Shown piece by piece: positions 5,805 to 48,316 of a stretch of DNA of 64,000 nucleotides (position 1 is the first letter of the stretch; every line of letters begins with the position of its first letter). This DNA comes from an uncultured virus (IMG/VR IMGVR_UViG_3300027976_000026) (Duplodnaviria > Heunggongvirae > Uroviricota > Caudoviricetes > Straboviridae), in IMG/VR virus record IMGVR_UViG_3300027976_000026; one strand, given 5' to 3'. A model generated the notes under the pieces. That model had not been told where the DNA came from. It searched no databases and was given only the letters and a program-made list of their open reading frames with translations. The position numbers were made by a program, and so were the translations under genes.

Positions 5805-5970
5805 CATCTAGTACCCGCACGGAAATTATTCCGACTAATAAGAGATTCTGTGCCACGATGACATAAATATGTCATCGGATGCAGATCGCCGATGTAATGC
5901 TCTGCGAGCAGAAAACAACCTTTTCTGCAAAGACTTCTTGTAGTTCTATCAATGTCTTTTTAGTAGGCAT
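5777..5970 (-). pseudogene. frameshifted remnant of a homing-endonuclease Zn-ribbon DNA-binding repeat
   Basis: MPTKKTLIELQEVFAE, then after a 1-nt shift at GAAAAGG: KGCFLLAEHYIGDLHPMTYLCHRGTESLISRNNFRAGTRCQNC. Confidence 0.55.
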
Positions 5971-6003
5971 TTTTAATCTTCAAGTGAATAACTACTTTAT
6001 TGT

Positions 6004-6261
6004 ATGGTTGATGGAGATATTTTTGTGCCACAGCTAATTAAACCAGGATCGGTCAAAATCACGACCCAAGATGGGGAAGTCCAAGTGACAATTGCCTTGG
6101 AGCTAACCATAAATCTAAACACGGATGGTGTTAAGGTTTATGCACAAGCAGTGGAACAGAAAAAAGAAGAAATTCAACAAGAAATTCAACAAGAAAAGGA
6201 TGAATGGATGATTCCTGATTTTGGAGCTTCTCCTAAACTTGATTTCGGAAAACGGGAGTAA
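6004..6261 (+). CDS. small hypothetical protein directly upstream of the actin-like gene
   Basis: Stop lies 3 nt before the next start; its 3' end carries the GGAG RBS for the next gene. Confidence 0.65.
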   Translation: MVDGDIFVPQLIKPGSVKITTQDGEVQVTIALELTINLNTDGVKVYAQAVEQKKEEIQQEIQQEKDEWMIPDFGASPKLDFGKRE

Positions 6262-6264
6262 ATT

Positions 6265-7269
6265 ATGCCAATTGGATTTGACTGCGGAACATTCAATCTC
6301 GTCTGCTGCCACAGAGACGATAAAGGGGACTTCGTATACAAGAGAGAAGTCAATGCTTTCTTGGAACTCCCATTGGATAATCGTTTCGTCTTCAACATGA
6401 TGAAGACAGCGGGCGTGCCATTGATTGAACGAGACAAGGTTGCTTATGCTTTGGGCGAGGCGGCTTGCAATATGACTTACACAATGAGCCAGCTTGAACT
6501 CAAACGTCCCATGATTCACGGATGTGTCAATCCAAAAGAAAAAGACGCATTCCAGATTATGTCGATCATGATTCACTCATTGATTGATGGAATTACAAAA
6601 GATGGGGAGACGCTTTACTATTGCGTACCAGCCAATGCCATCAATGAAGATACAGACGCCGATTATCATCAAAGAATCCTTGAAGCAATCTTCAAGGCAT
6701 ACAAGGATGAAACGGGTCGCAAAGTAGATGCACACCCAATCAACGAAGCCCTAGCCCTGGTCTATGCAGAACTTGGAAAGAAGGCGTTTACGGGCATTGG
6801 TGTGAGTTTTGGTGCTGGCATGGTTAATCTATGTTATGCGATGTATGGAAATCCTGTTTTCGCTTTTTCGATTGTCAACTCAGGCGATTGGATCGACCGT
6901 CAAGCTGCTAAAGCAACGGGCGAGTCAATCTCTTTCATCAATAAAGAAAAAACGAAAATTGATTTGACTAAAGCTCCCGCCTCGTTGGTGGAACGGGCTA
7001 TTCATACTCAATACAGGCTGATGATAGAACATACCGTACAGGGAATCAAGAAAGGTTTTGCAGACATTACCAAATCGGTTCGTGCCGACGCTCCGGTTGA
7101 CGTGGTAATTGCTGGTGGAACATCTTCTCCTTATGGTTTTGCTACTATCTTCAAGGAAACGATTCAGCAGGCCGACTTGCCAATCAAGATCGGAGAGATC
7201 ATTAAACCTAATGATCCGTTATACAGTGTTGCTCGTGGCTGTCTGCTGGCAGCGGAAGCAGCAAAGTAA
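6265..7269 (+). CDS. actin-fold ATPase (MreB/ParM/MamK superfamily)
   Basis: Phosphate-1 IGFDCGTFN, connect-1 INEALA, phosphate-2 GVSFGAGMVN, adenosine VVIAGGTS, connect-2 SVARG. Confidence 0.85.
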   Translation: MPIGFDCGTFNLVCCHRDDKGDFVYKREVNAFLELPLDNRFVFNMMKTAGVPLIERDKVAYALGEAACNMTYTMSQLELKRPMIHGCVNPKEKDAFQIMSIMIHSLIDGITKDGETLYYCVPANAINEDTDADYHQRILEAIFKAYKDETGRKVDAHPINEALALVYAELGKKAFTGIGVSFGAGMVNLCYAMYGNPVFAFSIVNSGDWIDRQAAKATGESISFINKEKTKIDLTKAPASLVERAIHTQYRLMIEHTVQGIKKGFADITKSVRADAPVDVVIAGGTSSPYGFATIFKETIQQADLPIKIGEIIKPNDPLYSVARGCLLAAEAAK

Positions 7270-8418: not shown

Positions 8419-8877
8419 ATGAAAAAGAACCAGAAGAGTGTTAGCGACCTTGGGGCCGCAGCATATTTGTTAATGCACGAAATTAAGGTCATTGGTCGTC
8501 GAGGCAAGGATATTTACTTCTTGCTTACAGAGGATCATACGTCTGAGAAGTTTGACCAGTTAACCCTTGATTATTTGTCAAGTGAATTTCACCGATTTGA
8601 TGCTTGCATCATGTCGCTGAAAAAGATCGGCGAATACAACTTTGAAACGAGGAATCATCGCTTCGTTACTGATTTGGGCGCTGCTGCTTATATTCTCATG
8701 CACAAATACAAGGTTGTAGGTAAAAAGGGCAAAGCAATCTACTTTGAATTAGACGATGAGATTTCGGACAAATTTGATGAAGTTGCTCTGGACTACATCT
8801 CCAGCGATTATCACCGATTCGATTCTTGCCTAATGTCCCTGAAAAAGATTGGGGAATACGTTAGCGATCATAACTAA
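8419..8877 (+). CDS. tandem two-domain protein (DUF5659-like)
   Basis: Two ~72-aa repeats (S/T)DLGAAAY(L/I)LMH...FD(A/S)C(I/L)MSLKKIGEY; start moved to MKKNQK. Confidence 0.6.
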   Translation: MKKNQKSVSDLGAAAYLLMHEIKVIGRRGKDIYFLLTEDHTSEKFDQLTLDYLSSEFHRFDACIMSLKKIGEYNFETRNHRFVTDLGAAAYILMHKYKVVGKKGKAIYFELDDEISDKFDEVALDYISSDYHRFDSCLMSLKKIGEYVSDHN

Positions 8878-8911
8878 TCTCAGCAGAGATATATAAGGGC
8901 AAGGAGAAATC

Positions 8912-10825
8912 ATGCTGGGATTCAAAGAATATCGTAATAGGTTTACAGAAGCCACACCTGATGAGGGAGCGGTGCAGCCTGAAGACGTGCTAAAACACGA
9001 AAAGGCAGCAAGCATCCAAAATCAAGTCAATCAAATTGTTGACACTTGGGTTGCGGACTTGAAACGAACTCTCATAAACCCAATGACGCCTCTTGCAGAT
9101 CGTCGGGGTCTATGGGACCGTTTCAAGAATACCATGTCTAATGTGTGGCACGGACGTTACAACCAAACCAATCCGTATTTCTGGAAAAATAAACTTGGCG
9201 ATGACTTGGGAGCTACCCAGGAATCTTTCAATCCCAATAACCTTTCTTTGTCCGATTACAAATCTCTTCGAGACATCTGCGAATCCCTTGAAGAACAACT
9301 CAACGAAGATGTACCAGAGGGCGCTGAAAACCTTCGTTTGGTTCGTATGATTGATACGAAGGCAATGGAACTCAAGCAGAAACTCATGTCTATTGTCGGC
9401 GATGCTGGAGACTCTTCTAATGCCTCTGTGTTAACACCAGATGAGCCTTCAACATCGCCTTCAACATCGCCTTCAGCAGCCAATCCCGAAGATGGGGAAG
9501 TAGATTCCAAAGTCCCAGGTGGATTTTTGAGTTTAGTCAAAGTTGTAGAACAATGGGCAAAGTCCAAAAAAATGGATATGAAAGAAGCTCAAGATTTGAT
9601 CGACAGACTAACCAGCAAAAGAGATTCAATCAGACAAAAAGCCGCCGACGATTTCACAAAATACAACAATCAGTTCAATGGTGAATCAGACAAATCGACT
9701 CTTGGAACATCTGCATCACCGGATGCCACTGCATCCTCAGATGCTCCTGAATCTGACAAGGGAGCTTTGTTTACGCCGCCTTCTACTGGCAAACGATGGG
9801 AAGAACTCAATCCTGATGAGAAGTCCAAATGGGACATCTATGGCGGCGGTGCATCACATGGTTCTGGAACCAAAGTTGATGGTTGTTTGAATGACCACGG
9901 AATCTTTAAGATGCCTTGGATCATGAGAATTGGTGATCCACGCCGACAAATATTGGCGGATCAAAAAGAAGGCAAATTGCCAGATAGCAAAAAGTGCGGA
10001 AACAAGAAAGTTGGATCGCATTGGTTTGACTTCCTGCATCGTTTAGGACGTTGGGAATTGGATAGCGATCCCATCAAAGACGCAATGGGACTACAATCCA
10101 GAGTAGAAAAAGCAAAAGCAACAACAGAAGAAGCTCGTAGGAAGATGCCTCGCTCGACGGCACCTTCAGACGTTGATGCTGCTCGTGATGCGGCAATGGG
10201 AAGCGATCCAGCGGCTCCAGCGGCTCCAGCGGCTCCAGAAGCGGCTCCAGCGGCTCCAGCGGCTCCAGCGGCTCCAGAATCAATACCAACACCTACTCCA
10301 TCAATGAAAGATCGTGTTGGAAGTATTGGCGACGAAGTGCCAGAAGTAAAAAACAAGTTCACTGGAACTGGTTTAAGCGAACCAATGCACACTGGCGGTA
10401 GTGATGAACCAGAAAACACTCCACCTGATCTAAAGAGTAGAGTTGCTGGCATAGATGGCGCTGACGCTATTCCTAATCCAACTCCAAAAGAAGAACCAAA
10501 AGAAAAGCCTGTCAGACAAATGAAAAAAGAAATGGCGGCTCGCATTGAAGCATTGTCAGACGAAGACACAAAAGAACAATTGCTCAGAACATTGAAGAAA
10601 ATGAAAGATCGAACAGACCTTGCCCAACTTGAAAAAGAGTTGGGAATTCATGAATTAGCAAACATGGAAATAGAATGGACGGCAACAGATATGAAGAATT
10701 TCTACAAGCAACGTCTTCACGAAAGAAAAGGTGTGCCGCAACCTTTAGTGAACAACAAGAAGATTGAAATGCTTTCTTTCTCAGAAAGAACAAAGTATTT
10801 CAAAGAACAACTTCAAAAAAGGTAA
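8912..10825 (+). CDS. large low-complexity protein, candidate internal head protein
   Basis: GGAG RBS; N-terminus MLGFKEYRNRFTE; PAA repeats and many E-rich linkers. Confidence 0.6.
   Translation: MLGFKEYRNRFTEATPDEGAVQPEDVLKHEKAASIQNQVNQIVDTWVADLKRTLINPMTPLADRRGLWDRFKNTMSNVWHGRYNQTNPYFWKNKLGDDLGATQESFNPNNLSLSDYKSLRDICESLEEQLNEDVPEGAENLRLVRMIDTKAMELKQKLMSIVGDAGDSSNASVLTPDEPSTSPSTSPSAANPEDGEVDSKVPGGFLSLVKVVEQWAKSKKMDMKEAQDLIDRLTSKRDSIRQKAADDFTKYNNQFNGESDKSTLGTSASPDATASSDAPESDKGALFTPPSTGKRWEELNPDEKSKWDIYGGGASHGSGTKVDGCLNDHGIFKMPWIMRIGDPRRQILADQKEGKLPDSKKCGNKKVGSHWFDFLHRLGRWELDSDPIKDAMGLQSRVEKAKATTEEARRKMPRSTAPSDVDAARDAAMGSDPAAPAAPAAPEAAPAAPAAPAAPESIPTPTPSMKDRVGSIGDEVPEVKNKFTGTGLSEPMHTGGSDEPENTPPDLKSRVAGIDGADAIPNPTPKEEPKEKPVRQMKKEMAARIEALSDEDTKEQLLRTLKKMKDRTDLAQLEKELGIHELANMEIEWTATDMKNFYKQRLHERKGVPQPLVNNKKIEMLSFSERTKYFKEQLQKR
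10208..10277 (+). repeat. 9-bp coding repeat CCAGCGGCT (Pro-Ala-Ala)
   Basis: Directly visible tandem copies. Confidence 0.9.
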
Positions 10826-10869: not shown

Positions 10870-11802
10870 TCAATTGCCGTGTCTAGTCTGAACCCAGCGA
10901 ACAGTACCACTTTCAGATCGCATAATGACGCTATGTGTTGTTGGTCCACGAGAGTTAACAGAAACTCCCTTCAATAGACTACCATCGGTAATGCCAGTGG
11001 CAGCGAAACAACAATGACTCCTCACCAAGTCATCGTGCGAGAAGGTATCGCCTTTTAGTCCCACATCTTTATCCCAAACTTGAGCCAAGAAGAAGCCTCG
11101 CAAACACTTTACGGCTGCTGCCGTTATCACAGCTTCAGGTGCGCCACCTACGCCATATTGCATATCAATATTTCCATCAGCAGCAGAAATCGCACCAGAG
11201 ATGTCGCAGTCTTGTATCAACTTAATTCTGACTCCCAATTCTCTCATCTGGGCAATGTATTCTTCGTGACGAGGGCGATTGAGAATACAAACCATCAATT
11301 TGTCCACAGGTTTATTTAAGACTTCAGCAACTTGCTTGCACAATTCAGACAATGGGGTGCTGAGATAAAGATTTGTTCTACGAGCCACATCCCCACTGAC
11401 TGCGAGCTTTAGCATGTAATGCTCATCTGTATCAAACATGGTTCCTTTGTCGGCCATAGCAATAACGCTCATGGCTTCTGGCCCTGATGTCACAGTAGGG
11501 GTTGTTCCATCAATAGGATCGAGAGCAATGTCTACTTCTTTTGTGAATAAAGTACGAAGAACAGTTCCACCAAGATGAAGCCAACCACATCCAACACGGT
11601 CGCCCTTAAACAACCCATAACTTTCATCTTTTTTGCCTTCACCAATCTGGACTGTTCCTGCAACGTCCATGCGGTCAAGTCTGTCACGCATTGCGTTGGT
11701 AGCAGCCAAATCAGCTTCGAGTTTCTTGCCACTGCCTACCCAGGCTGCGGCAGCAATTGCCGCAGCTTCAGTTACACGAATCAAGTCCATATTATTGCGC
11801 AT
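10870..11802 (-). CDS. glpX: fructose-1,6-bisphosphatase class II
   Basis: RVTEAAA, VQIGEGKKDE, LDPIDGT, LNRPRH, GVGGAPEAVITAAAVKCL, FAATGITDGSLLKGV, SVIMRSESGTVR. Confidence 0.93.
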   Translation of the reverse strand: MRNNMDLIRVTEAAAIAAAAWVGSGKKLEADLAATNAMRDRLDRMDVAGTVQIGEGKKDESYGLFKGDRVGCGWLHLGGTVLRTLFTKEVDIALDPIDGTTPTVTSGPEAMSVIAMADKGTMFDTDEHYMLKLAVSGDVARRTNLYLSTPLSELCKQVAEVLNKPVDKLMVCILNRPRHEEYIAQMRELGVRIKLIQDCDISGAISAADGNIDMQYGVGGAPEAVITAAAVKCLRGFFLAQVWDKDVGLKGDTFSHDDLVRSHCCFAATGITDGSLLKGVSVNSRGPTTHSVIMRSESGTVRWVQTRHGN

Positions 11803-16197: not shown

Positions 16198-16697
16198 GCA
16201 GGAACATCTCTTAAAGCGAGGGCCATTCGCATATTGATGGCATCTCCACTTGTCAAAGTGAGTGTGTTAGACAATGGATTGCTGGCCAATAAAATTCCAT
16301 TCCCTACCATGAATAAATTAGACACTGGACCCCAGCCTGATCCTGTTGCGATAAACGTGACGATCTGGCTGGTGGCTCTGTAAGCTCCACTTACAACATC
16401 AATGGTGAACTGTCCTGATGAGCTTACAGCTTGTCGTAAATATCCATTGTCAGATGGCTCGTCGGCAATATCTGTCATGAGATCATCAACAGTGATAGCT
16501 GCACGATTGTCTAGTCCAAAGTAATAGTTTGCTGGTGGATATGTGCCTGGGCTGGAATCAAAGGCACAAGTCAACATAAACATTTCTCCACCAATGTGTA
16601 AAGTGTTGAGTAGGTTTTTTTCTTCCCAAATCACCTTGCCGTCTCGGACGTGTTGGATTTCAAGAATCTTAACTAAGCCATGCCAATCTTTTTTCAT
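16194..16697 (-). CDS. probable tail/baseplate-associated structural protein
   Basis: NLLNTLHIGGE, EPSDNGYLRQAV, F.ATGSGWGPV, TLTSGD resemble phage tail beta-sandwich proteins. Confidence 0.5.
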   Translation of the reverse strand: MKKDWHGLVKILEIQHVRDGKVIWEEKNLLNTLHIGGEMFMLTCAFDSSPGTYPPANYYFGLDNRAAITVDDLMTDIADEPSDNGYLRQAVSSSGQFTIDVVSGAYRATSQIVTFIATGSGWGPVSNLFMVGNGILLASNPLSNTLTLTSGDAINMRMALALRDVPA

Positions 16698-17251
16698 TTT
16701 GAACCTAACTTTATTGGCGTTTTCTCGCCAGTTTTCGAGGAAAAGAAAATCTTATTGATCGTAAACTTTTCATTTACGAAGGCATCATTGCCAATGTATT
16801 GTCGGCCTTCACCTTTTCGCATGTAGCAAATTGTAACATGAGGCACATAAACAGGATAACTTTCTGTAGCCTCTAAACTTCTTCGCATCTTTCGGTTTAG
16901 CCTGTGTAGTTCTTCGCATTCCACACCTACAATCAGCACATCGAATTTGTCGCTTTTCGTAAACAAATCAATCTTGCCTAATTTACACTCAAACTCTTTC
17001 TCTTCGGTAAACAAGTCAGAGACTTCTTTTAAGTTGTCTGTATGAATGCCGTATATCAAAGTAATGTGAGGGTCATCCTCTCGACCGAAACCAGGGTCTT
17101 TAGGATCGAGAAATACTGATTCATTAGGTACATGATCCCACCCCCAAGAAATTGCATTGTCTGCAATTTCTTCTGGTAGTTCGACCAATAATGAAGAGTA
17201 ATCGTATTTGTTTCTACGAGTCTCATTAACCAAGAACTGCTTGAAGCTCAT
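16694..17251 (-). CDS. 2H phosphoesterase, T4 gp57B/Acb1-like
   Basis: Two HxT motifs: DPHITLIYG and YVPHVTICY; start MSFKQFLVNE. Confidence 0.75.
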   Translation of the reverse strand: MSFKQFLVNETRRNKYDYSSLLVELPEEIADNAISWGWDHVPNESVFLDPKDPGFGREDDPHITLIYGIHTDNLKEVSDLFTEEKEFECKLGKIDLFTKSDKFDVLIVGVECEELHRLNRKMRRSLEATESYPVYVPHVTICYMRKGEGRQYIGNDAFVNEKFTINKIFFSSKTGEKTPIKLGSK

Positions 17252-17567
17252 CGCCATCATCTTTCTCGTCATCTACCTTTCGGCGGCGTTGTTGGATGTC
17301 TTCAATCTTGGCTTTCTCTTTGGATATTTCCTCATCAATAGCCTGAATTGCTCGGAACGGGTCATACGCATACGCATTGCCTTGGCCCCGTGCCAATTCA
17401 CGACGTTCTGAGTTAACCTCACGACGATCCCGTTTCTTTTCAACAGTCTCTAGCTTTCCTAGAGCGGCCCGTATGTGATAACGTACTTCTGACAAAGAGT
17501 GATCCTGCGGTACTTGCGATAACGCTTTCTGCAAAGCCACCTTTGTTTCATTTGTGTTGTTTTTCAT
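17226..17567 (-). CDS. hypothetical coiled-coil protein
   Basis: Overlaps both neighbours in an operon. Confidence 0.65.
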   Translation of the reverse strand: MKNNTNETKVALQKALSQVPQDHSLSEVRYHIRAALGKLETVEKKRDRREVNSERRELARGQGNAYAYDPFRAIQAIDEEISKEKAKIEDIQQRRRKVDDEKDDGDELQAVLG

Positions 17568-30954: not shown

Positions 30955-33900
30955 ATGCCACTTTGGTCAGACTTTTTCAAATTGTTCACATATGCCACAG
31001 AGAAAGACCCTCTGTCGGCTCGTAAAGACCCTAAGAACTTCGGGACTGCTGGCATTTCCCAGCCAGAAGCATTAGGGACAGATTTTCAAAGCGGTGGTGG
31101 ACCGGGTGGCCAAACAAGCTACCGTCAAACCAACGACATGATTGACACGACGACACTCTCCAATCGCTCTATGCGATATAAAGAGTATGAGCGTCTGCGT
31201 AATGTCCCGGAAATCGAAATGGCAATGACAGTCTTCGCTGATGAAGCGTGCGTTGCAGGTGATACTCCAATCACAACTCCATTCGGCGTTACAACCATAA
31301 AAGAGTTGGCAGAAAAAAGAGCCGATGAGAGATTTTTGGTTTATTGCTATGACTTCATTAAAAGAGATTACACTCTCGGTTGGGCTTTCGCTCCACGATT
31401 GGTCAAAAAAGCCAAAACTCTAACTATCATCCTGGACAATGGCACAAAGTACACTGCCACCCTGGATCACCTCGTTCTAAAGAAAAACGGGGAATGGATT
31501 GAAACAGGAGAACTTCAGTTCGGCGACGAACTAATGCCGTTTTACCGTCTGTCGGCTGCGTCCGATCTTAAACACAAACAATTTCCTCGTCTATTCAGTT
31601 TTGCAAAAGGCTGGATCAGTGAGCGTCAATTCATCGACGATTGGAAAACAGGCAAAAGTAATCCTGACTATGAAAAAGTAAATCGAGTAATTCGTATGGT
31701 TGGTGGCGGATTAACCACCCGACAAATTGCTAACAAACTAAATTTCGATTGGGCGACAATAGACGCCTGGGTAAAAAAAGAAGGATTCACCCCAAAGGAA
31801 ATCAGAACTCTTTACAAGCACGAAGATCGTCGTAGAGTTGTAGGGATTGAAGAAGGTCCAGAACAAGATGTTTATGACATTTCAGTTGAAGGACACAAAT
31901 GCTTCGCTACGGATTCTGTGATTCTACACAATTGCCAAAAAGATGAAGATGGCAACATATTCAAAGTGATTACAGCAAACGACGAAATTCGTGAAGAAGT
32001 TGAATTTCTGCTGTTGCACCGCAAGATGTTGAATATGAATCGCCAAGGTTGGACATGGTTCAAGAACCTGTGTATTTCTGGCGACTGGTTCGTAGAAATG
32101 GTCATCAATCCAGATAACCCTAAAGAGGGCATTTATCGAGCCATGCCATTGCCTCCCGAAACGATGTATCGCATCGAAACGGTAAAGGGCAAGATGATTG
32201 AGTACCAACAAAGCAAAGAAGGCCCTGATTATCAGGCCATCATACGAGGACCAGTCACCGGACAAAACGAAATGGAATTGAATCAAACGACGGCCATTAG
32301 GTTTGCTCCAAGCCAAGTCGTTCACTTCCGAATTGGCGATGATCGAAAGACATTCTTTCCATACGGTCAGAGCTTAATCGAGCCAGCCCGTGGACCGGCT
32401 CACAGCTTGAGATTGATGGAAGACGCAATGGTCGTATATAGGCTGTGTCTGGTGGGGGATTCCCGTGTTCGCACTGAAGACAGTTATAAACTGATTCGTA
32501 ATCTCAAAGTCGGAGATTGCGTTTGGTCACTTACTCCTAAAGGAATAATCCCAGCAAAGGTTTCCTGGTTCGTCAATAATGGCATTCAGGATATATTGAA
32601 AGTTCGCACTAAGCACGTTGAACTACGGGGAACAAAAACGCACCCAGTTTTGGTCAACAGAACAGGCGTCGTTCAGTATGTAGATATGCAAGATTTGCAA
32701 ATCGGTAAAGATCGCCTATTATTGGTTGACAATGATGCCAATCAACAGGTGGAAATTCCGTTTTTCGAGTCAGAACCGTGGGCTAAGTTATCCAAAGAAC
32801 AATTATTTACTTTCCGCAAAAAACAATACAAAAACAAATCAAACTTGTTGCGAGAATGCCATAATTTTGGTCGAGCCAAGCAATTCCTGTACTGTAAAAA
32901 CAAAGCTCTGCCATTATCCAAAGCAGAAAAGATCTGCGAGGTTTTTGGATTAGACAGTTCAAAATTGATCCAAGTCAATAAAAATCAAAGAAACGAAGAA
33001 CGTATTTCTTTACCATATATTGTTGACGAGGAATTTGCAAGATTGTTTGGTTTTCTATGCGGAGATGGGAACATCCACAATGGTTCTCAATTGTCTTTTT
33101 CAGCCGGAACAGACAAAACAATCAACGAAGTATATCGAGCAAAATTAGAGAACTATTTTGGGAAAGTGCGATTTGAGACAGACAAAAGAAGTTTGACGGG
33201 ATGCGGCAAGCATGTGGTAGATTCTACCTTTGCCTGTTCTTTAATGACGAGAATGGGTTACATCAACAATCATGATTGTAATCGTATTCCAAAATGGGTT
33301 TTCACAGCGCCGAAGAATATTCGCCGTGCATTCATAGAAGGTCTGTCAGACGCCGATGGATGCGAACGTCACACAAATAAAGGCACATGGTTCTCAACTA
33401 TTGAATTATGCAATGAAGAACTCGTCAGAGACATTAAAGAACTATGGTCATCCATTGGATTGAGTTCAGGACATCTAAAAACAAGACATCGTAAAGGTGG
33501 TCATGAAATTGAAATTGGCAGAGTAATGCCGCCAACAACTTCATACTCTGTAACCATTAGTGATGTTTTGCTGCCAGAAGAAGAAAACATTATTTCTATT
33601 GAAGAAGACGGAAAAGAAGAAGTATTTGATATTACAGTGGATAATGAATATCACAATTTCATTGTGAATGGCTGTTGTACACACAACACCCGTGCGCCAG
33701 AACGACGTGTGTTTTATATTGATGTTGGACAACTCCCTCCATTCAAGGCTGAAGCATTTATTGATCGACTGAAAGATCAATTCCGCAAGCGTAAAATCAC
33801 GAGTGGCCGGGGCGCACCAGGAGCAAACTCAGTAGAAGAACGCTGGCAACCACCGGCTCAAGACGAAGACTATTGGCTACCAATTCGTCCAAACAGCCTC

Positions 33901-34737
33901 ACTCGTATTGATACATTGCCGGGTGCTGAAAACTTAGGCGAAATTGACGATGCTGTTTACTTCAGAAACAAGTTGTTGACCAGTTTGAATTTCCCGAAGA
34001 ACTACTTCAACAATGAAGACCCAGGTGCAACCAGAATTACTCTGTCTACTCAAGATGTTAAGTTCGCTCGCATGATTGAGCGGCTACAGAGTCACTTCGA
34101 GGATGGAATCCTGGATATGGCAGAGAGACACTTACATTTGCGAGGTTATCCTGAAGAAAGTTATCAAGACCTAAAGATCAAGATGACGGCTCCTTCGGAT
34201 TGGCGAGAGCTTTCTCGTGCAGAAGTGGTAACGGCCCGCTATACTAATGCTGGTACATTAAAGAGTGGTCAGCTTATGGCTGACTATGATATTGTCACCA
34301 AGATATTAAAGTTTTCCGATGACGAAGCTGATGAAATGCTGGCTCGTTTGAAGTTGCAAAAATTGGAAGACCTCAAACTACAAGTATTGGCGCAGAATCC
34401 ACAACTATTGGGTGTGGGCATTCCTGGGGCTGATGCGGGTGGCGGTCAAGGAGAACTTGGAACCGAACCAGGTGGACCGGGCATGTCGCCTGACCCGATG
34501 GCGGGTGGTGATCCTATGGCAGCAGCAGGCGGTGGAGCAGGCGCTCCTCCACCAACGGCAACGGCTTCTGGGGCAGATGAAACACCCGATGCTGATCCCG
34601 GCTCAAAAGCACCTGAAGGTGCGAACATTCCAGAGCCAGATGGAGAAGACATCAAGAAGTATGATCTTGAGATTCAAGACTACGAGGCCGAGCAGGACCG
34701 AGAAGATATTGACTACAGCGTAGGTGACGAGGGTTAA
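30955..34737 (+). CDS. portal protein (T4 gp20-like) with two inteins; about 618 aa after splicing
   Basis: PEIEMAM..ADEA, LRLMEDAMVVYRL|TRAPERRVFYIDVG, EDYWLP, IDTLPGAENLGEIDD, DVKFARMI. Confidence 0.95.
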   Translation: MPLWSDFFKLFTYATEKDPLSARKDPKNFGTAGISQPEALGTDFQSGGGPGGQTSYRQTNDMIDTTTLSNRSMRYKEYERLRNVPEIEMAMTVFADEACVAGDTPITTPFGVTTIKELAEKRADERFLVYCYDFIKRDYTLGWAFAPRLVKKAKTLTIILDNGTKYTATLDHLVLKKNGEWIETGELQFGDELMPFYRLSAASDLKHKQFPRLFSFAKGWISERQFIDDWKTGKSNPDYEKVNRVIRMVGGGLTTRQIANKLNFDWATIDAWVKKEGFTPKEIRTLYKHEDRRRVVGIEEGPEQDVYDISVEGHKCFATDSVILHNCQKDEDGNIFKVITANDEIREEVEFLLLHRKMLNMNRQGWTWFKNLCISGDWFVEMVINPDNPKEGIYRAMPLPPETMYRIETVKGKMIEYQQSKEGPDYQAIIRGPVTGQNEMELNQTTAIRFAPSQVVHFRIGDDRKTFFPYGQSLIEPARGPAHSLRLMEDAMVVYRLCLVGDSRVRTEDSYKLIRNLKVGDCVWSLTPKGIIPAKVSWFVNNGIQDILKVRTKHVELRGTKTHPVLVNRTGVVQYVDMQDLQIGKDRLLLVDNDANQQVEIPFFESEPWAKLSKEQLFTFRKKQYKNKSNLLRECHNFGRAKQFLYCKNKALPLSKAEKICEVFGLDSSKLIQVNKNQRNEERISLPYIVDEEFARLFGFLCGDGNIHNGSQLSFSAGTDKTINEVYRAKLENYFGKVRFETDKRSLTGCGKHVVDSTFACSLMTRMGYINNHDCNRIPKWVFTAPKNIRRAFIEGLSDADGCERHTNKGTWFSTIELCNEELVRDIKELWSSIGLSSGHLKTRHRKGGHEIEIGRVMPPTTSYSVTISDVLLPEEENIISIEEDGKEEVFDITVDNEYHNFIVNGCCTHNTRAPERRVFYIDVGQLPPFKAEAFIDRLKDQFRKRKITSGRGAPGANSVEERWQPPAQDEDYWLPIRPNSLTRIDTLPGAENLGEIDDAVYFRNKLLTSLNFPKNYFNNEDPGATRITLSTQDVKFARMIERLQSHFEDGILDMAERHLHLRGYPEESYQDLKIKMTAPSDWRELSRAEVVTARYTNAGTLKSGQLMADYDIVTKILKFSDDEADEMLARLKLQKLEDLKLQVLAQNPQLLGVGIPGADAGGGQGELGTEPGGPGMSPDPMAGGDPMAAAGGGAGAPPPTATASGADETPDADPGSKAPEGANIPEPDGEDIKKYDLEIQDYEAEQDREDIDYSVGDEG
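31249..31932 (+). mobile_element. intein 1 (228 aa) with an HTH-like insert and no recognisable endonuclease
   Basis: CVAGDT...ATLDH...VYDISV...ILHN followed by Cys+1. Confidence 0.9.
32446..33687 (+). mobile_element. intein 2 (414 aa) with LAGLIDADG homing endonuclease
   Basis: CLVGDS...GTKTHP...LFGFLCGDG...FIEGLSDADG...VFDITV...THN followed by Thr+1. Confidence 0.93.
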
Positions 34738-41563: not shown

Positions 41564-41598
41564 AAGAAACCTACCGACACTATGTCGGTAGGTTTCTT
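41564..41598. terminator. bidirectional terminator after the capsid gene
   Basis: AAGAAACCTACCGACA-CTA-TGTCGGTAGGTTTCTT. Confidence 0.9.
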
Positions 41599-42775
41599 AT
41601 TGGTTTTTACAAACGTAGCTGCGAAGAAGTGCTTCTTTCGTGTCCACGTTTAGCGACTTGAGGTAAACTTCGTCCCACACCAGGAACACCCCGCCCTCAT
41701 CCCTCGCAAGTTCCTTGCCTCGATTTTCCTTCGCTATATTGATCTCGTCTGTCCTCTTAAAACCCGGCTTCACTTCGACAAAGTAAAGTTTTTCGTCACC
41801 AATGTATTTGACTAGAAAATCTAGCACATATCTATGGGTTTTTCCCAGGTAGACATAATCAATCCCGAACGGCTCGAAATCATACCACTCGACTGATTGA
41901 TTTTCGCTTAGGTGGATGTGAGCGATCAATTCCAGATGCGATCTGAAATAAGGGTTCGTTTTCCTGCATTTGCCTGCCGGATGAGAAATCCATCCTGTTA
42001 TGTGTCCTTGATTCCATCGTCCTCCAGCCCACTTTCCCGACGTAATTAAGTCGATCATCGTTTTGCTTTGCTTCTGATTCCACTCTTCTGGCCTTGTAAT
42101 GCCTTTTGCCCAAGGATTTGCGTAGCTTTCAGCGAGCCATGTTGTGCAGTTCTGGCGTAGATAATCTTTCATTTCTGGTAGTTGGTTGTAGTGTTCAACT
42201 CCATATTTCTCCAGAGTGGTGATTGCTCCTTTAACTCGGACTTCAGGCAAGCTCAAAGGATTATCTACTCCATACCGTTCTTGACAAGTTTGTCGCATTT
42301 TCTCCTGGATTTTTTCAGATTGAAGAGGAAAGTCTACGCCATATTTTTCTTGCATAGCTTCATTAAGTCGCCGTATGCCTTCATCGGTTTTCATGATATG
42401 GTCGGCCCCATATCGCTTCACAGAAGTTTCCCGTCGTTTGTTGACAATTTTCTGCGTAGATTCCTCAGTACCGAACATCTTTTCAACCCGTTCAGCGATC
42501 TTTTCCGGTGTATTGATCGGCATGGCAGTGCCATATTTTGCGATATTGGTTTTCTCAATTTTATCTCGAACCTCTTTGCGATTAGCGGGGTTATTCGCTG
42601 CCATTTGACATGAACGGCAAATATGCTTGCCGCCATGTGCATCAGCATTCTTTTGAGCAACGCTGTATATTGGCGTAGACTCCGTTCCGCACAATTTGAA
42701 CCCGCCGTTACAATCGTACTTGATCCGCACCCGTTGTCCAGGTAGTAGATTCGCAGGAATCTTTTCGATGTACAT
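41597..42775 (-). mobile_element. free-standing homing endonuclease with KYG repeats and a TnsA-like PD-(D/E)XK domain
   Basis: Repeated (K/R)YG(V/A/T) units; YFRSHLE, FEPFGIDY, RYVLDFLV, FVEVKP. Confidence 0.75.
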
Positions 42776-42818: not shown

Positions 42819-42852
42819 AAAAACCCGTAGTCGTTTCCAACTACGGGTTTTT
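42819..42852 (-). terminator. terminator closing the repeat-protein operon
   Basis: AAAAACCCGTAG-TCGTTTCCAA-CTACGGGTTTTT. Confidence 0.8.
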
Positions 42853-42874: not shown

Positions 42875-43039
42875 TCAGTTGGTTTTCTTAAACCAATCAG
42901 GACGCATTTTGCGAATCTCCGCATCAAACTCAGGATCATATCCTTGACTGTTGAATACAGCTTTTGAGAGCGGTCGTGGCTCGCCATTACGAGCCATTTC
43001 CATAAGTTGTTGCTTCTTCGCCTTTGCTTCGTCACTCAT
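42875..43039 (-). CDS. 54-aa single-repeat mini-protein (not in the ORF track)
   Basis: Manual translation: MSDEAKAKKQQLMEMARNGEPRPLSKAVFNSQGYDPEFDAEIRKMRPDWFKKTN*. Confidence 0.75.
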   Translation of the reverse strand: MSDEAKAKKQQLMEMARNGEPRPLSKAVFNSQGYDPEFDAEIRKMRPDWFKKTN

Positions 43040-43104
43040 CGCTACATTATCCAAATCAGATAATTAAGTAACCACTACGCATCATACCAAAAGATTATTG
43101 AGTG

Positions 43105-44436
43105 TCAACTCCTGAACCAATCAGACCGCAGTTTTCGAATTTCTTTGTCGAAGTCTGGGTCGTAAGAACCACCTTGATTAGTATAATGAGTTAAAACCTT
43201 TCCTAATTCTCCCGTCTTTTGACTGGGTCTTAGTTCACCATTCTTTGCCATGTCCAGAAGTTGTTGTTTCTTCTGGTCAGCAATATCAGATGTTAATACA
43301 AACCAATCAGGTCTTAAATTTCTGATTTCCTTATCAAATTCTGGATTATAACAGCCATTTTTTAGACTTGTATAAGAAGACAACATGCCTCCTAATTCAT
43401 GTTTTTTATTATTTGGTCTTGGTTCACCATTTTTAGCCATTTCCAATAGTTGTTGTTTAGCAATATTAGATGTTGAGATAAACCAATCAGGTCTGAGATT
43501 GCGAATCTCTGCGGCAAATTTAGGATCGTAACATTTTGATACAGTACAAATGTAATTATTAAACACCGATCCCAATTTAGTTTTTCTCTTTGGTTTTGGC
43601 TCACAGTTTCTCGCCATTTCCAGAAGTTGTTGTTTCTTCTCGCTTGCAACATCGAACTGAGATATAAACCAATCAGGTCTAAGTTCACGGACTTCCTTGT
43701 CAAATTCTGGATTATAACAGCCATTTTTTGGATTAGTATAAGAAGACAACGTGCTTCCTAATTCATGTTTTTTATCATTTGGTCTTGGTTCACCGTTTCT
43801 CGCCATTTCCAGAAGTTGTTGTTTAGCAATATTAGATGTTGAGATAAACCAATCAGGTCTAAGCCTACGAATTTCTGCATTAAATTCAGGATCAGATCTC
43901 ATGTAATGATTAAACGCAATTCCTAATTCATGTTTTTTATCATTTGGTCTTGGTTCACCATTCTTTGCCATTTCCAGAAGTTGTTGTTTTTTATCGCTTG
44001 CAACATCGAACTGAGATATAAACCAATCAGGTCTGAGATTGCGAATCTCTGTGGAAAAATTAGAATCGTAACATGGGTTTTTTGGATTAGTATAAATTCT
44101 CAAAAAAATTCCCAAGTTATGCGTCCGTACTTTTGGTATTGGATGTTCTTTACGAGCCATTTCCAAAAGTCGCTGTTTCTTCTGTACGGAATTATCAAAC
44201 CAATCAGGTCTAAGTTCACGGATTTCTGCGTCAAACACATCATCATAACAGCCACCTTTAAGGCGTATATAGTTGCGAAAAACCGATCCCAATTTAGTTT
44301 TTTTCTTTGGTTTTGGCTCTCCGTTTCTCGCCATTTCCAGAAGTTGTTGTTTATTCTGGTCAGATTGAGTTAAGCAGAACTTCTCCCAGCCGTCAATTGA
44401 TTCTAAGAGTTGTAATTGCCATGTTTTGAGTGTCAT
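43105..44436 (-). CDS. 7-repeat protein B (about 60-aa KKQQLLEMA...RPDWF repeats)
   Basis: Seven repeats counted; ATGA overlap with the upstream paralog gives start MTLKTWQ at 44436. Confidence 0.85.
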   Translation of the reverse strand: MTLKTWQLQLLESIDGWEKFCLTQSDQNKQQLLEMARNGEPKPKKKTKLGSVFRNYIRLKGGCYDDVFDAEIRELRPDWFDNSVQKKQRLLEMARKEHPIPKVRTHNLGIFLRIYTNPKNPCYDSNFSTEIRNLRPDWFISQFDVASDKKQQLLEMAKNGEPRPNDKKHELGIAFNHYMRSDPEFNAEIRRLRPDWFISTSNIAKQQLLEMARNGEPRPNDKKHELGSTLSSYTNPKNGCYNPEFDKEVRELRPDWFISQFDVASEKKQQLLEMARNCEPKPKRKTKLGSVFNNYICTVSKCYDPKFAAEIRNLRPDWFISTSNIAKQQLLEMAKNGEPRPNNKKHELGGMLSSYTSLKNGCYNPEFDKEIRNLRPDWFVLTSDIADQKKQQLLDMAKNGELRPSQKTGELGKVLTHYTNQGGSYDPDFDKEIRKLRSDWFRS

Positions 44437-45794
44437 TTTATTTTTCTGAACCAATCAGACCGCAGTTTTCGAATTTTTTTGTCGAAGTCTGGGTCGTAAG
44501 ATTTATGTTTTAGTCTTGTGTAACAACCCAAAACCGATCCCAGTTTATGTGTTTTTTGATTTGGTCTAGGCTCGCCGTTCCTTGCTATCTCCAGAAGTTG
44601 TTGTTTCTTCTGGTCAACAATATCAGATTGAGTTTTTTTATTTCTGAACCAATCAGGCATAAGTTCACGAATTTTTTTGTCGAAATCTGGATCGTAAGAA
44701 CTGTCTTTTGGTTTTGTGTAATAAACCAAAGCCGATGCCAATTTATGTGATTTCCTATTTGGTCTTGGTTTGCCACGACGTGCCATATCGATAAGTTGTT
44801 TTTTTTTATGATTTACGGCATAACGAAACCAGTCGGGTCTAAGGCTGCGAATTTCCTTATCAAAATTTTTGTCAAAGGTATTGCCTACGGTTGTATATTT
44901 GCTTAAACAACTACCAATGTGTTCTGAAATTTTTGGTCTTAGTTTTCCTCGTCGTGCCATCTCTAAGAGTTGTTTCTTCTTTTGGTTGGCACGCTCAGAT
45001 AGAGACACAAACCAATCAGACCGCAGTTTTCGAATTTCTTTGTCGAAGTCTAGGTCGTAACAATTAGATTTTGTAGTGTATAAAGTCAATGAATGGCCCA
45101 ACTCATGTACTTTTTGAATAGGTCTTGGTTCACCACGACGTGCCATCTCCAAAAGTTGTTGTTTCTTCTGATCGGCAATATCAGATAAAGATGAAAACCA
45201 GTCAGGTACGATTTTGCGGATTACCTTGTCAAACTCTGGATCGTAGCAATCTCGCTTGTGTTCTGTGTAAATACGCAAGACATTTCCTAGACCATCTCGT
45301 TTAGGTTTTTTCTCTCCATTCCTTGCCATCTCCAAAAGTTGTTGTTTCTTCTGATCGGAAATATTAGATCGAGACACGAACCAATCAGGTCTGATCTTAC
45401 GAATTTTTTTATCAAAGTCTTGGTCGTAGCTGCCGCTTTTTTGACTCGTATAGCAAGTCAAACCAGATCCCAATTTATGTGATTTCTTATTTGGTCTTGG
45501 TTTGCCACTATATGCCATCTCTAAGAGTTGTTGTTTCCTTTTCTTGGCACACATGAACCAGCGGGGTATGCGTTCTCTGATTTGCTTGTTGAATTCTGAA
45601 TCATAAGAACTGCTGTTGTGTCTCGTGTATTCATTCAAAACATACCCCAGAGGATGCTTTCCCGGAATGGGTTTTGTCTCGCCATTCTTTGCCATCTCCA
45701 TAAGTTTCTGTTTCTTCTGACTTGATTTAGATAAACAGAACTCCTTCCAGCCACTTTTGGAATCCAAAAGTTGTATTTGCCAAATACTAAGCAT
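44433..45794 (-). CDS. 7-repeat protein A
   Basis: Seven repeats; likely start MLSIWQ at 45794, overlapping the helicase stop by 8 nt. Confidence 0.85.
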   Translation of the reverse strand: MLSIWQIQLLDSKSGWKEFCLSKSSQKKQKLMEMAKNGETKPIPGKHPLGYVLNEYTRHNSSSYDSEFNKQIRERIPRWFMCAKKRKQQLLEMAYSGKPRPNKKSHKLGSGLTCYTSQKSGSYDQDFDKKIRKIRPDWFVSRSNISDQKKQQLLEMARNGEKKPKRDGLGNVLRIYTEHKRDCYDPEFDKVIRKIVPDWFSSLSDIADQKKQQLLEMARRGEPRPIQKVHELGHSLTLYTTKSNCYDLDFDKEIRKLRSDWFVSLSERANQKKKQLLEMARRGKLRPKISEHIGSCLSKYTTVGNTFDKNFDKEIRSLRPDWFRYAVNHKKKQLIDMARRGKPRPNRKSHKLASALVYYTKPKDSSYDPDFDKKIRELMPDWFRNKKTQSDIVDQKKQQLLEIARNGEPRPNQKTHKLGSVLGCYTRLKHKSYDPDFDKKIRKLRSDWFRKIK

Positions 45795-47679
45795 TCTCTG
45801 TCTGCCTTTTATAATGTGCTCGTTGAACTGCCATAAATCGGTACAGCGAGCTATCTTTGTCAAGATTTTCAAAGCCAATTCGACTTGCTTCTTCAACTTT
45901 TTCTTTCCAATCTGTTCCTAAGAACTGTTGGAGTCTTTGAAGGTCATTTGTATTGGCTCGACCTTCAAATGGAGAATGCGGAGCTATATGAGTTCTGACG
46001 ACTACGTCCCAACCATGTTCACGCACAAAATCAACAATCATTCCATCAAGTCGTAGATCAGGGTTATTTGGATTTTGTCGTCTTAGGAGTTCTTTACGGA
46101 GTCGTTCTTTGAGGACTTCATAAGAGACATTTTCCAAGATATAATCATCAAATGATTCGATGATATCTTCGATTACTTCGTTGATGGCATCTGGAGTGCG
46201 AAGGTCTTCTGGGATTGCAAGTACAGCTTGGAGCATTTCTTCGATTACATCGTTACGTTTAGAGCCGTAAACATCTTCAAGGCTGACGTATTTAACTGGT
46301 TCAGTGTCTTCTTCGTCGTCATCAAATGGCAATGTGGGCATGAGGATGGGATAGAACATATCATCGAGCATTGACGAGACGATAACTGCGTTAAACATAT
46401 CCGAGATGTTTTGGCGGATTTTATCTGATGGTGAGTCCCATTGTGCGAAGTATTCGATGTAATTGACCATTTTGACATCTTGTTTGTCTTTATGGTCTCG
46501 AAGACTGCGGCCCAATTTTTGGATGGCCAAGTGTACCGAACGATCAAAACTAGCGTTGTGGATTCGTGAGCATGGAGGCCAATCTGTCCCTTCTCGACCT
46601 ATCATGCAGGTGACAGCAACTTGAAAGTCATGGTCATCTGACATGAGTCGATCTTTATCTCGTTTTTGTCGATCTGGTCGTACTAGATCGAGAACCAATT
46701 TTGGTCCATAGATTTGTTCTAGTTTTTCTACTAATGTCTTAACCCATTCGGTTTTATTGGTGGTCTTAAAAAAGCTATTGCCATCTGAGGGAACAATAAT
46801 GAGGGCAGGTTCGTTTGATTCTTCTTTGACAGAATCAATGATCTGATTCATGAGTTGAGTGCTATTTTCATAGCAAACATAATTTTGTCGTAATTCACGC
46901 AGTCCAAGGACATTCCAGTGTTCCATGAATGGCACTCTGAAAATCTCGAAATCACTAAGATAATCGGTGTCAATAATGGCTTGTTTATTGCCACGATAGA
47001 AGAGTGCGGTCATTACATGAAGAAATCCCTCTTGATCCAAGAGGTATTTGCAAAATTCACCCAATCTATTCATTTCATAATCATCTTCACTTACGCCTGA
47101 AACATGTTGTATTTCATCGATGCGAAACGATGTATTTTTGATCGCACGTTTCTTTTCAGAATTGCTCATATTCTGAAAGGCTTTTATGAAGGCGGCGTAT
47201 GTAGCAACGCAAGTGACTCCTCCGAGGACATCTTGTTTTCTGAAGGAATCTAGGCTTTTTTTAGTTCGTTTTTCCAGAAGAAATTTACGAACACTTTCGA
47301 CTGAGCCATCATTTTCTTCACAGCAATTGGTGGTTATTTCCCAATGATAAATTTTGCCATCTATATTCAACATGGGGTGTTTTTTCTCAGTGAACCCATA
47401 TCCGATATTGAGTTGTGGCACAATAAAGATTTGTTTTCGTTCATAGTCAGTTTGGATAATTTCACGAGCTGCGTCGAAGATTTGCATTAAACTTTTACCA
47501 CTCCCTGTTGGTGCAACGGTGAGGGTGCGAGTTTTGCCGTCAAAGCTCTTAAATCTACGTATTTGATAATCTCGTCCAGCATACCCAAGCTCTCTTGGTT
47601 GAGATTGTTTTATCGCAGGCAGTTTGGCTTGATGTGGTTTCCAATTTGGATCTCTAAAACTGAAATCGGCAGGCTTCAT
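45787..47679 (-). CDS. SF2 DExH helicase/ATPase (restriction Res-like)
   Basis: RDYQ, APTGSGKS, FIVPQ, ATYAAF, IDEIQH, REGTDWP, IQKLGRSLR. Confidence 0.85.
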   Translation of the reverse strand: MKPADFSFRDPNWKPHQAKLPAIKQSQPRELGYAGRDYQIRRFKSFDGKTRTLTVAPTGSGKSLMQIFDAAREIIQTDYERKQIFIVPQLNIGYGFTEKKHPMLNIDGKIYHWEITTNCCEENDGSVESVRKFLLEKRTKKSLDSFRKQDVLGGVTCVATYAAFIKAFQNMSNSEKKRAIKNTSFRIDEIQHVSGVSEDDYEMNRLGEFCKYLLDQEGFLHVMTALFYRGNKQAIIDTDYLSDFEIFRVPFMEHWNVLGLRELRQNYVCYENSTQLMNQIIDSVKEESNEPALIIVPSDGNSFFKTTNKTEWVKTLVEKLEQIYGPKLVLDLVRPDRQKRDKDRLMSDDHDFQVAVTCMIGREGTDWPPCSRIHNASFDRSVHLAIQKLGRSLRDHKDKQDVKMVNYIEYFAQWDSPSDKIRQNISDMFNAVIVSSMLDDMFYPILMPTLPFDDDEEDTEPVKYVSLEDVYGSKRNDVIEEMLQAVLAIPEDLRTPDAINEVIEDIIESFDDYILENVSYEVLKERLRKELLRRQNPNNPDLRLDGMIVDFVREHGWDVVVRTHIAPHSPFEGRANTNDLQRLQQFLGTDWKEKVEEASRIGFENLDKDSSLYRFMAVQRAHYKRQTENA

Positions 47680-47680
47680 A

Positions 47681-48316
47681 TCATGACCTTATAAAGAGGA
47701 AGGTTCCCATGTCGGTTCTGGACGCTTTGTAGCAATAAAGCTGTTCTGAAACAGTCCAATCTGTTGGATTTCTCAGATGTTTTACTACTGATTCGACCAA
47801 AATTTTTGGATCAAATCTTTTACTGGAATGCCCATCTGACAACATCAGATTTGCCGCCACAACAGTTTTTGGTGGGCAGAGATTCATGGTTTTAGCGAGA
47901 TATTTGTGGCAACTCGTTTTGAGCACAGTTTTTGTGTAATCGAAATACACAAGTGCTGGATTGAAAATCTCGAAATTATCTTCGATTGTTTCGAGCCAAT
48001 CTCCGCACAGCCAGTTGGCTTCGGGATGGTTTTTTTTATTGAATTCAATTACACCTTCACCTTTGAGGTCGTTGTCGATTCCAAAAAATTGATTTTTGGT
48101 GATAAATCCAGCTTGGACCAACTGAACGATTTCTGATCCTTCTGTATCGGGTTGTTTATTGCAGAAGGTCCAGTAAGATTTTTCCATTGGAATTGAATGG
48201 ATGCCGGTAATTTTTCTATAAGCATTGATCAATTCTTGTCTTGCCTTTATCTTGGCAGAGTTCTTATAATATTCTGGCTGTTCGGCGAAATGATGTTTGT
48301 CGAATGGATTTTGCAT
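47681..48316 (-). CDS. putative class I SAM-methyltransferase-fold protein
   Basis: Strand pattern YWTFC / FFGIDND / WLCGDW / LVYFDY / VVAANL / MGTFLF; no canonical GxGxG. Confidence 0.45.
   Translation of the reverse strand: MQNPFDKHHFAEQPEYYKNSAKIKARQELINAYRKITGIHSIPMEKSYWTFCNKQPDTEGSEIVQLVQAGFITKNQFFGIDNDLKGEGVIEFNKKNHPEANWLCGDWLETIEDNFEIFNPALVYFDYTKTVLKTSCHKYLAKTMNLCPPKTVVAANLMLSDGHSSKRFDPKILVESVVKHLRNPTDWTVSEQLYCYKASRTDMGTFLFIRS

Follow-up and report, generated by a model that had tools for sequence, protein, structure and literature searches.

How might a helicase work with repeat proteins that are encoded directly behind it, in genes of their own? The question is raised by a stretch of 64,000 nucleotides (nt), here called the window, from the uncultured virus IMGVR_UViG_3300027976_000026, in which five co-oriented genes occupy positions 42875 to 48316 of the minus strand. 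The first is p1 (47681..48316, 211 amino acids (aa)), a protein of undescribed family with the Rossmann-like fold of class I S-adenosylmethionine (SAM) methyltransferases. It is followed by a superfamily 2 (SF2) helicase of the DExH, ResIII type, without a nuclease domain (45787..47679, 630 aa), then by array A (44433..45794, 453 aa, isoelectric point (pI) 10.0, net charge +49) and array B (43105..44436, 443 aa, pI 9.25, net charge +15), each made of the same leader and seven repeat units, and finally by a mini gene with one degenerate unit and no leader (42875..43039 from an ATG, 54 aa, or 42875..43054 from a TTG, 59 aa). A preliminary description of this DNA had proposed this set of genes, and all the open reading frames (ORFs) were confirmed. 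The same is true of the junctions it gave (p1 and the helicase are separated by 1 nt, the helicase and array A share 8 nt, and the two arrays overlap in an ATGA) and of the intrinsic terminator that closes the set at 42819..42852 on the minus strand, with a 15-bp stem containing 6 GC pairs and a T-run.

The explanation that we favour, and to which as a whole we give an even chance, is that of a helicase fitted in trans with alternative, basic and probably nucleic-acid-binding arrays, through the docking of the two pieces of a split helicase-associated (HA) domain, together with a methyltransferase-like partner. This joint judgement includes two further propositions, namely that the ~60-aa three-helix units would belong to a divergent, uncurated branch of the HA kind, and that the module would be a conserved accessory set in a clade of T4-like huge phages. 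What the sequences and models establish is a helicase lineage joined, covalently or through its gene neighbourhood, to arrays of basic three-helix units and to an enzyme of methyltransferase fold, along with the complementary division of HA; docking, the binding of nucleic acid, sequence specificity, the substrate of p1 and the biological role are matters of inference.

An HA domain at the helicase/array boundary

Eleven of the 120 listed array homologs start with a partial canonical HA domain, the four that were scanned scoring 26.4–31.6 bits against Pfam HA. A canonical HA profile was made from those eleven N-termini and the three full HA domains of another repeat locus, L035, and was compared by hhalign with a helicase-tail profile (last 56 residues of 30 helicases) and a leader profile (first ~23 residues of 27 array proteins). 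The helicase tail aligns with columns 1–52 of HA (Prob 62%, E 7.5e-5) and the leader with columns 53–71 (Prob 91%, E 1.1e-6), the two ranges being exactly complementary, and together they extend the similarity to the whole domain. Therefore, tail and leader correspond to one HA domain divided exactly at the helicase stop codon, with its last helix opening every array protein. In the window, the N-terminal two thirds of the domain (helices 1–2) are found at 45793..45921 of the minus strand, up to the stop codon, and the third helix is given by residues 1–19 of array A (45738..45794, same strand). In the controls, the reversed profile gave an E of 0.09 for the tail and 0.14 for the leader, and the minimum over 30 column shuffles was 0.032 and 0.038, respectively. 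In addition, a BLASTP alignment of the +1 read-through product runs across the junction on the Pfam-HA N-terminus of the protein P0057. The leader was also considered as the last helix of a repeat unit, and this is ruled out by an E of 0.078 against the unit compared with 1.1e-6 against HA.

In the explanation favoured here, the arrays would be detachable nucleic-acid-binding arms of the helicase, arms that some relatives have as a C-terminal fusion to the orthologous helicase. Helices 1–2 of HA, formed by the last ~40 residues of the helicase, and helix 3, formed by the first ~20 residues of every array protein, would reassemble in trans, so that a single motor could be equipped with one array or another (A or B in the window, a maximum of three leader-bearing arrays in relatives). 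The arrays, with whatever sequence specificity they may have, would recruit the helicase together with p1 to DNA or RNA, or keep them there, and p1 would act on the bound substrate. Nucleic-acid binding by the arrays is suggested by their charge and by what is written on HA; the title of a nuclear magnetic resonance paper on an HA domain, as it appears in a reference list, reportedly states DNA binding. The split pattern fits reassembly in trans, without proving it. Prediction of the complex between helicase residues 540–630 and array A residues 1–80, run with alignments, gave values of 0.30 and 0.28 for a mark of 0.32, which is no evidence either way.

The same boundary could also be read as a site of programmed +1 frameshifting, slippage or coupled re-initiation that yields a fused protein, the separate genes being only apparent. 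In the 8-nt overlap the stop codon is immediately preceded by an A-run, and a shift of one base forward opens a reading frame that extends the HA domain without interruption; an overlap of the same length is present in the related locus L012. However, in L014/L019, L026 and L041 the array genes are placed upstream of the helicase gene, and in L014/L019 a terminator follows the helicase while both HA halves are retained, an order that argues against read-through fusion. Moreover, the leader also opens array B and the later L012 arrays, which come after genes ending in a repeat unit instead of an HA half; each array has a start codon of its own, and the frame offset in the DNA is fixed in four assemblies. 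A fusion produced at this overlap is, in our judgement, very unlikely.

An assembly error as the cause of the frame offset is ruled out. The nearest available record, G001, an IMG/VR contig of 106,870 bp rated 22% complete, is 99.95% identical to the window over 40–50 kb and has the identical offset, and the junction is spanned without an indel by contigs assembled from three freshwater runs (three studies) and from a divergent soil strain. Locus L018 is 100% identical to the window over 4,483 nt.

The occurrence of the two halves was followed across relatives. The helicase profile finds 63 proteins, of which 31 are unfused and have the HA part at the extreme C-terminus, 19 are fused to 4–10 repeat units, and 13 have neither repeats nor the HA part; none of the 19 fused helicases carries either HA half. 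At the level of loci, the two halves go together: both are present in the window, L016/L017, L019 and L021, and the half profiles of the window type found neither of them in L022, L026, L033 and L041. The position of the break is not constant. The helicase of L027 ends at HA column 46 (E 5.9e-6) and the arrays of L041 begin at HA columns 24–29 (E 1.2e-9 and 2.4e-9). For L041, the breakpoint is shown on the array side only, because the match of the helicase C-terminus to HA helix 1 is not significant in single-sequence hhalign (E 0.14). In L035, the helicase tail resembles, by eye only, the first helix of the repeat unit, and the two genes after the helicase begin with positions 28–62 and 30–62 of the unit hidden Markov model (HMM); the match of this tail to HA is not significant (E 0.5).

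Breakpoints that vary by lineage are what random fission would be expected to leave. An ancestral helicase-HA-array fusion may simply have broken, the HA pieces being leftovers that do not dock and the arrays acting alone as abundant basic proteins that coat or organise DNA. The existence of fused orthologs agrees with such a relic, as does the absence of the leader from 161 of the 198 array-only proteins; some array loci have no helicase nearby, and the predicted template modelling score (pTM) of 0.48 of the array model suggests loosely connected units. Nonetheless, the HA pieces are still recognisable in helicases that are 51–67% identical and in every paralogous array, and they outlast changes of gene order. 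Also, HA is missing entirely from the fused forms, of which the split forms are therefore not mere broken copies. We regard a relic of fission as an unlikely account of the locus. At the other extreme, HA or the unit could be deliberately kept split between the motor and exchangeable arrays, as a plug and its socket. In that case, the phage would re-arm its motor by duplicating and diversifying array genes alone, the arrays would read DNA or RNA modularly, p1 would modify the substrate, and, since the break position differs between lineages, the split would have arisen more than once. This stronger form seems doubtful to us.

Other kinds of leader were also seen. A second and a third class, without similarity to HA by eye, open P0003, P0007, P0010 and other array homologs, including those of L022 and L033. 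They pair with longer helicases (729–765 aa) that have different tails, and could possibly represent other connector pairs.

The repeat unit and the arrays

Cutting at the terminal W-F gives exactly 7 + 7 + 1 units of 55–66 aa each, those of the two arrays having 58–66 aa, in agreement with the two paralogs of seven ~60-aa repeats that had been described. The single unit attributed to the mini protein also stands, although not as an intact one, as its middle helix (the L-G..L..Y-T stretch) is missing. When the single-unit protein is searched against G001, 15 matches are obtained (E 1e-37 to 6.4e-6), all inside the three repeat ORFs and none elsewhere in 106,870 bases. Arrays A and B share an N-terminal leader of ~20 aa that is not a repeat unit. 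The AlphaFold2 model of array A, with a predicted local distance difference test (pLDDT) of 91.4 and the pTM given above, shows three helices per unit.

The units are ~45–60% identical to one another, and column entropy is high at ~20 of 62 positions, located in the linker, the loop after R-P, helix 2 and the next loop. Like TALE, PUF and PPR proteins, the arrays are basic proteins made of tandem helical units with a fixed scaffold and variable surface positions. However, the near-identical units and few code positions that characterise TALEs are not found; the variation is diffuse instead of concentrated in such positions. Searches of the arrays against Pfam, PHROG, NCBIfam and PADLOC gave no meaningful match. 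With the whole 453-aa model of array A, Foldseek found no match in the Protein Data Bank at E ≤ 0.001, and comparison with PUF, HEAT and ARM structures gave a template modelling score of ~0.1 and E ≥ 0.02. Sequence searches of solved structures gave a best E of 0.43 with the repeat profile and of 0.11 with P0097.

Array B contains an internal, recent duplication of approximately two units (43248–43681 against 43614–44035, 83% DNA identity). This duplication, together with the breaks of short-read assemblies within arrays, suggests that the arrays are prone to recombination and hard to assemble. The mini gene may be the remnant of a third array gene; at its position, L012 has a third array with two units. 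Small proteins of a similar kind are also present in bacteria. In L042–L046 and L048, on chromosomes of metagenome-assembled genomes (MAGs) from Planctomycetota, Armatimonadota and Acidobacteriota, single-copy proteins of 55–127 aa are composed for the most part of helices 2 and 3 of the unit. These half-unit proteins are strongly conserved across phyla and resemble the mini protein of the window.

Regarding the relation between the unit and HA, one case is L035, where a 321-aa protein (8718–9680) consists of two repeat units followed by three canonical Pfam HA domains (E 4.7e-29) and lies directly after an SF2 helicase of 516 aa that seems to end inside a unit. As in HA, tandem copies of the unit are found attached to SF2 helicases. 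The top structural match is 2kta, the HA domain of BVU_0683 from Bacteroides vulgatus, and the ten best named clusters in the ESM Atlas all carry PF03457 (top score 0.85), which is taken as a lead only. These leads are partly independent and agree, weakly, in pointing to the unit as a divergent relative of HA and not as a member of the family.

Helicase, p1 and distribution of the module

The assignment of the motor to SF2 in the preliminary description is well supported. The helicase scores 27.1 bits with Pfam ResIII (cut-off 22.5) and matches phrog_16 'DNA helicase' with E 1.7e-13, its motifs I (Walker A) and II (D-E-x-x-H) and the arginines of motif VI being all intact. All of 30 orthologs share P57, T58, G59, G61, K62, D188, E189, H192, Q387, K388, G390, R391 and R394. 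No close relative is found among solved proteins; the sequences that come nearest, from RIG-I/Dicer-related, XPB and Hef helicases, match in the motif regions only and with E 1.7e-7 and weaker, and searching solved structures with the single sequence gave a best E of 0.57. Pfam detects ResIII, DEAD and Helicase_C only, with no nuclease domain and no family beyond residue 410, as expected from the absence of a nuclease motif already pointed out for this protein. Three orthologs of 47–50% identity (P0179, P0181, P0184) are fused to 4–8 of the repeat units found in the window. The helicase has a pI of 5.5 and 47 homologs at E ≤ 1e-5, mostly of ~630 aa. Also, in the orthologous helicases P0185, P0186 and P0187 (745–863 aa), other C-terminal tandem helical repeats, unrelated in appearance, replace HA or the arrays; the C-terminus of this helicase lineage thus looks like a place where repeat modules dock in general.

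For p1, 31 homologs are found, each at least 52% identical and ~211 aa long, which supports the ATG start. Its AlphaFold2 model is confident (pLDDT 91.2, pTM 0.88) and displays the Rossmann-like seven-strand fold of class I methyltransferases, as had been proposed from the sequence. Pfam finds no domain in p1 or in its 31 homologs, and p1 is a new methyltransferase-fold family without earlier description. In the alignment and the model, the invariant D81 ends strand 2 and G105-D106 follow strand 3, so placed that the invariant residues would occupy the usual SAM-binding and catalytic positions. At the position of motif I, a longer C-N-K-Q-P...G-x-E loop is present instead of the glycine-rich motif, motif IV reads F-D-x-T, and the D/N-P-P-Y/F motif is absent from the p1 alignment.

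The preliminary description had likened the gene order to type I/III restriction-modification. A conflict system of this or another nucleic-acid-targeting kind, for which that description suggested phage exclusion or host-DNA targeting, would have p1 methylating or otherwise modifying DNA, the helicase translocating and the arrays setting the target. Its gene content would agree with this, a methyltransferase fold adjoining a ResIII-type helicase and a variable multi-paralog component. The number and sequence of the arrays differ between related phages, and the module behaves as an accessory island, the 595,163-bp uncultured phage whose capsid protein is 80% identical to that of the window giving no match to an array or to this helicase. 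However, a search with the 34 aligned p1 members found no methyltransferase or DNA-methylase family for any of them at E ≤ 1; in structure, p1 comes closest to methyltransferases of RNA and of small molecules, which are statistically tied; there is no nuclease domain; no system model of PADLOC or NCBIfam fits; and the repeat variation, as described above, is diffuse. Of the module proteins, only the helicase has a PADLOC hit, a weak one to a Cas3 helicase (E 9e-5), and the arrays match no Pfam specificity family of the HsdS type. The type I/III comparison is thus not sustained, there being no DNA-methylase family or motif, no nuclease and no HsdS-type subunit, and judged by any defining feature examined in these sequences the module is not a restriction-modification system; a conflict system of that or a broader kind appears very improbable. 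The proposal of a candidate new system is supported in so far as no described one was matched in PADLOC, NCBIfam or the literature within reach.

The repeat family is large. Of 7,999 candidates scored for array B, at least 274 are homologs, many of them on contigs of 200–600 kb. A repeat profile built from 65 units and searched against 1.84 billion proteins matched 1,189 cluster representatives (50% identity) at E ≤ 0.001, 855 at E ≤ 1e-10 and 502 at E ≤ 1e-30. Among the best 150 profile matches, 23 proteins have at least 775 aa, and 18 of these carry ResIII, DEAD or Helicase_C at E ≤ 1e-5. In the species genomes of GTDB, one search pattern gave eight loci, two being full modules on MAG contigs (L041 and L047) and six corresponding to the small half-unit bacterial proteins, so that the family is mostly viral or metagenomic within the limited sensitivity of that scan.

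The loci found with the helicase (4/4) all carry p1, the helicase and 3–5 array genes, in three gene orders; among them, L011 and L012 have identical gene tables. The repeat profile in turn gave 26 viral loci on 25 contigs, with an orthologous helicase at 14, p1 at 11 and all three parts at 10. Other SF2 helicases occur at two further repeat loci, fused in L032 and adjacent in L035. Eight of the ten full-module loci (L016, L017, L019, L021, L022, L026, L027 and L033) have an unfused helicase and 1–5 array genes, and in the other two (L020 and L030) the helicase is fused to repeats. This supports the co-occurrence of repeats and helicase that the preliminary description anticipated, both being tied through conserved neighbourhood and through fusion. 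The opposite outcome it had considered, repeats occurring independently of the helicase, is mostly not the case, given these two ties.

Several observations weigh against the explanation favoured here. No helicase is present within the analysed DNA at 10 of the 26 repeat loci, where L015 and L018 start at a contig end and L038–L040 lie outside the Pfam scan; and, as said, most array-only proteins have no HA-type leader. Pfam HA misses the +1 read-through product. Of the 31 helicases matched by the profile of the helicase HA half, 30 had served to build that profile, and because of this only the absence of that half from fused helicases is informative. Regarding the unit, PF03457 gives no match at E ≤ 10 to single units, to whole arrays or to the 106.9-kb G001, and hhalign of the 65-unit profile with canonical HA, full-length and in the expected register, is not significant (Prob 0.1%, E 0.53). 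Finally, p1 has no glycine-rich SAM motif I of the canonical type and so may be something other than a methyltransferase.

The source of the window is a T4-like huge freshwater phage that encodes a Gp23 capsid protein, a T4-type portal, a prohead protease and a large terminase. Its capsid protein is less than 60% identical to those of the other 2,595 matching phage records. The module is surrounded by structural genes of a lytic-type huge phage. Among 50,697 phage records, neither the locus (megablast) nor array B (tblastn) had a match, and the helicase had two, of 30% and 23.5% identity. A sigma-70-like promoter match (43081..43108, minus strand) lies directly upstream of the mini gene, with 11 of 12 positions and a TG extension; it is a consensus match only, and the 15 promoter-like sites of the region do not exceed chance (17.1 in shuffles).

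Other genes near the module or elsewhere in the window deserve mention. Between the capsid gene and the module, a 392-aa protein (41597–42775, minus strand) has DUF7487 repeats and a TnsA-like endonuclease domain (PHROG 'homing endonuclease'), a neighbourhood conserved in L012 (14302–15462, 46.6% identity). In L012, a short capsid-like paralog of 323 aa (5062–6033, minus strand) adjoins the module, and in L025 an IS605 OrfB/TnpB-type gene with a Cas12f1-like TNB domain (9468–10691) lies beside p1. The T4-type portal gene of the window (30955–34737, plus strand, 1,260 aa) matches Intein_splicing in two stretches (E 2.2e-20) and a LAGLIDADG_3 homing-endonuclease domain, indicating that the portal protein holds an intein. 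Also present are a full-length match to Volactin, an actin-like Pfam family (6265–7269, plus strand, E 1.7e-69), the auxiliary metabolic gene FBPase_glpX (10870–11802, minus strand, E 2.4e-94) and a 2'-5' RNA ligase/Acb1-like protein (16694–17272, minus strand, E 3e-9 and 2.1e-8), a possible anti-CBASS candidate.

Relation to known systems and significance

The closest known counterpart is the HA domain itself (PF03457), as in Streptomyces TtrA and BVU_0683. The unit shares with it the size (~60–65 aa), the tandem arrangement and the location C-terminal to ResIII/DEAD helicases, it would also share the three-helix architecture, and both co-occur in one protein of L035. However, the arrays here are separate multi-copy genes and not a helicase tail, the unit has no PF03457 match or significant profile-profile similarity to HA, and canonical HA is used once, split over a gene boundary, next to a conserved methyltransferase-fold partner. 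Helicases with HA tails are already known; what is new is that a sister repeat family forms detached arrays with several paralogs, that an HA domain is split at a gene boundary, and that a partner from a new methyltransferase-fold family is present. With respect to type I/III restriction-modification (HsdM-HsdS-HsdR; Mod-Res), the module resembles it in placing a methyltransferase fold by a ResIII-type SF2 ATPase and a variable third component, and differs in having no N6/N4 DNA-methylase family or catalytic motif, nuclease, HsdS or defence-model match, and in being carried by a lytic-type huge phage among structural genes.

A division of one enzyme or domain over separate genes, presumed to reassemble, has precedents in jumbo phages, for which a split RNA polymerase beta/beta' and a split Pol III alpha are described (PMC7824862). 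In contrast to these, a small adaptor domain and not a catalytic core is divided here, and several paralogs open with a copy of one half, so that they could serve as interchangeable partners. A term search within a comparative review on jumbo phages gave no occurrence of 'helicase-associated' or 'HA domain', and a literature search, with most subscription journals outside its reach, found no description of the module or of a split HA domain. A preprint proposes that Streptomyces TtrA and some telomeric TniQ proteins recognise telomeres through tandem HA domains, and it discusses HA as a possible DNA-recognition module (bioRxiv 10.1101/2024.11.13.623437). For the phage module, candidate roles are replication or recombination, the handling of genome ends, and modification or counter-defence.

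To our knowledge, HA domains have been catalogued for approximately twenty years without an assigned function. The locus offers a compact and testable case for that function, as it brings together a sister family of HA, a tie to helicases and an HA domain cut exactly at a gene boundary. The sister family is large and uncurated (the 1,189 clusters counted above), occurs, as far as the scans reach, almost only on metagenome contigs of huge phages, and is linked to a single helicase lineage through fusions as well as gene neighbourhood. Moreover, the substrate of p1 would tell what the machine does. If the two halves dock, the locus would constitute a natural split-domain complementation by which accessory arms are swapped on a motor protein, and it would provide a first role, as adaptor or connector, for an HA domain.

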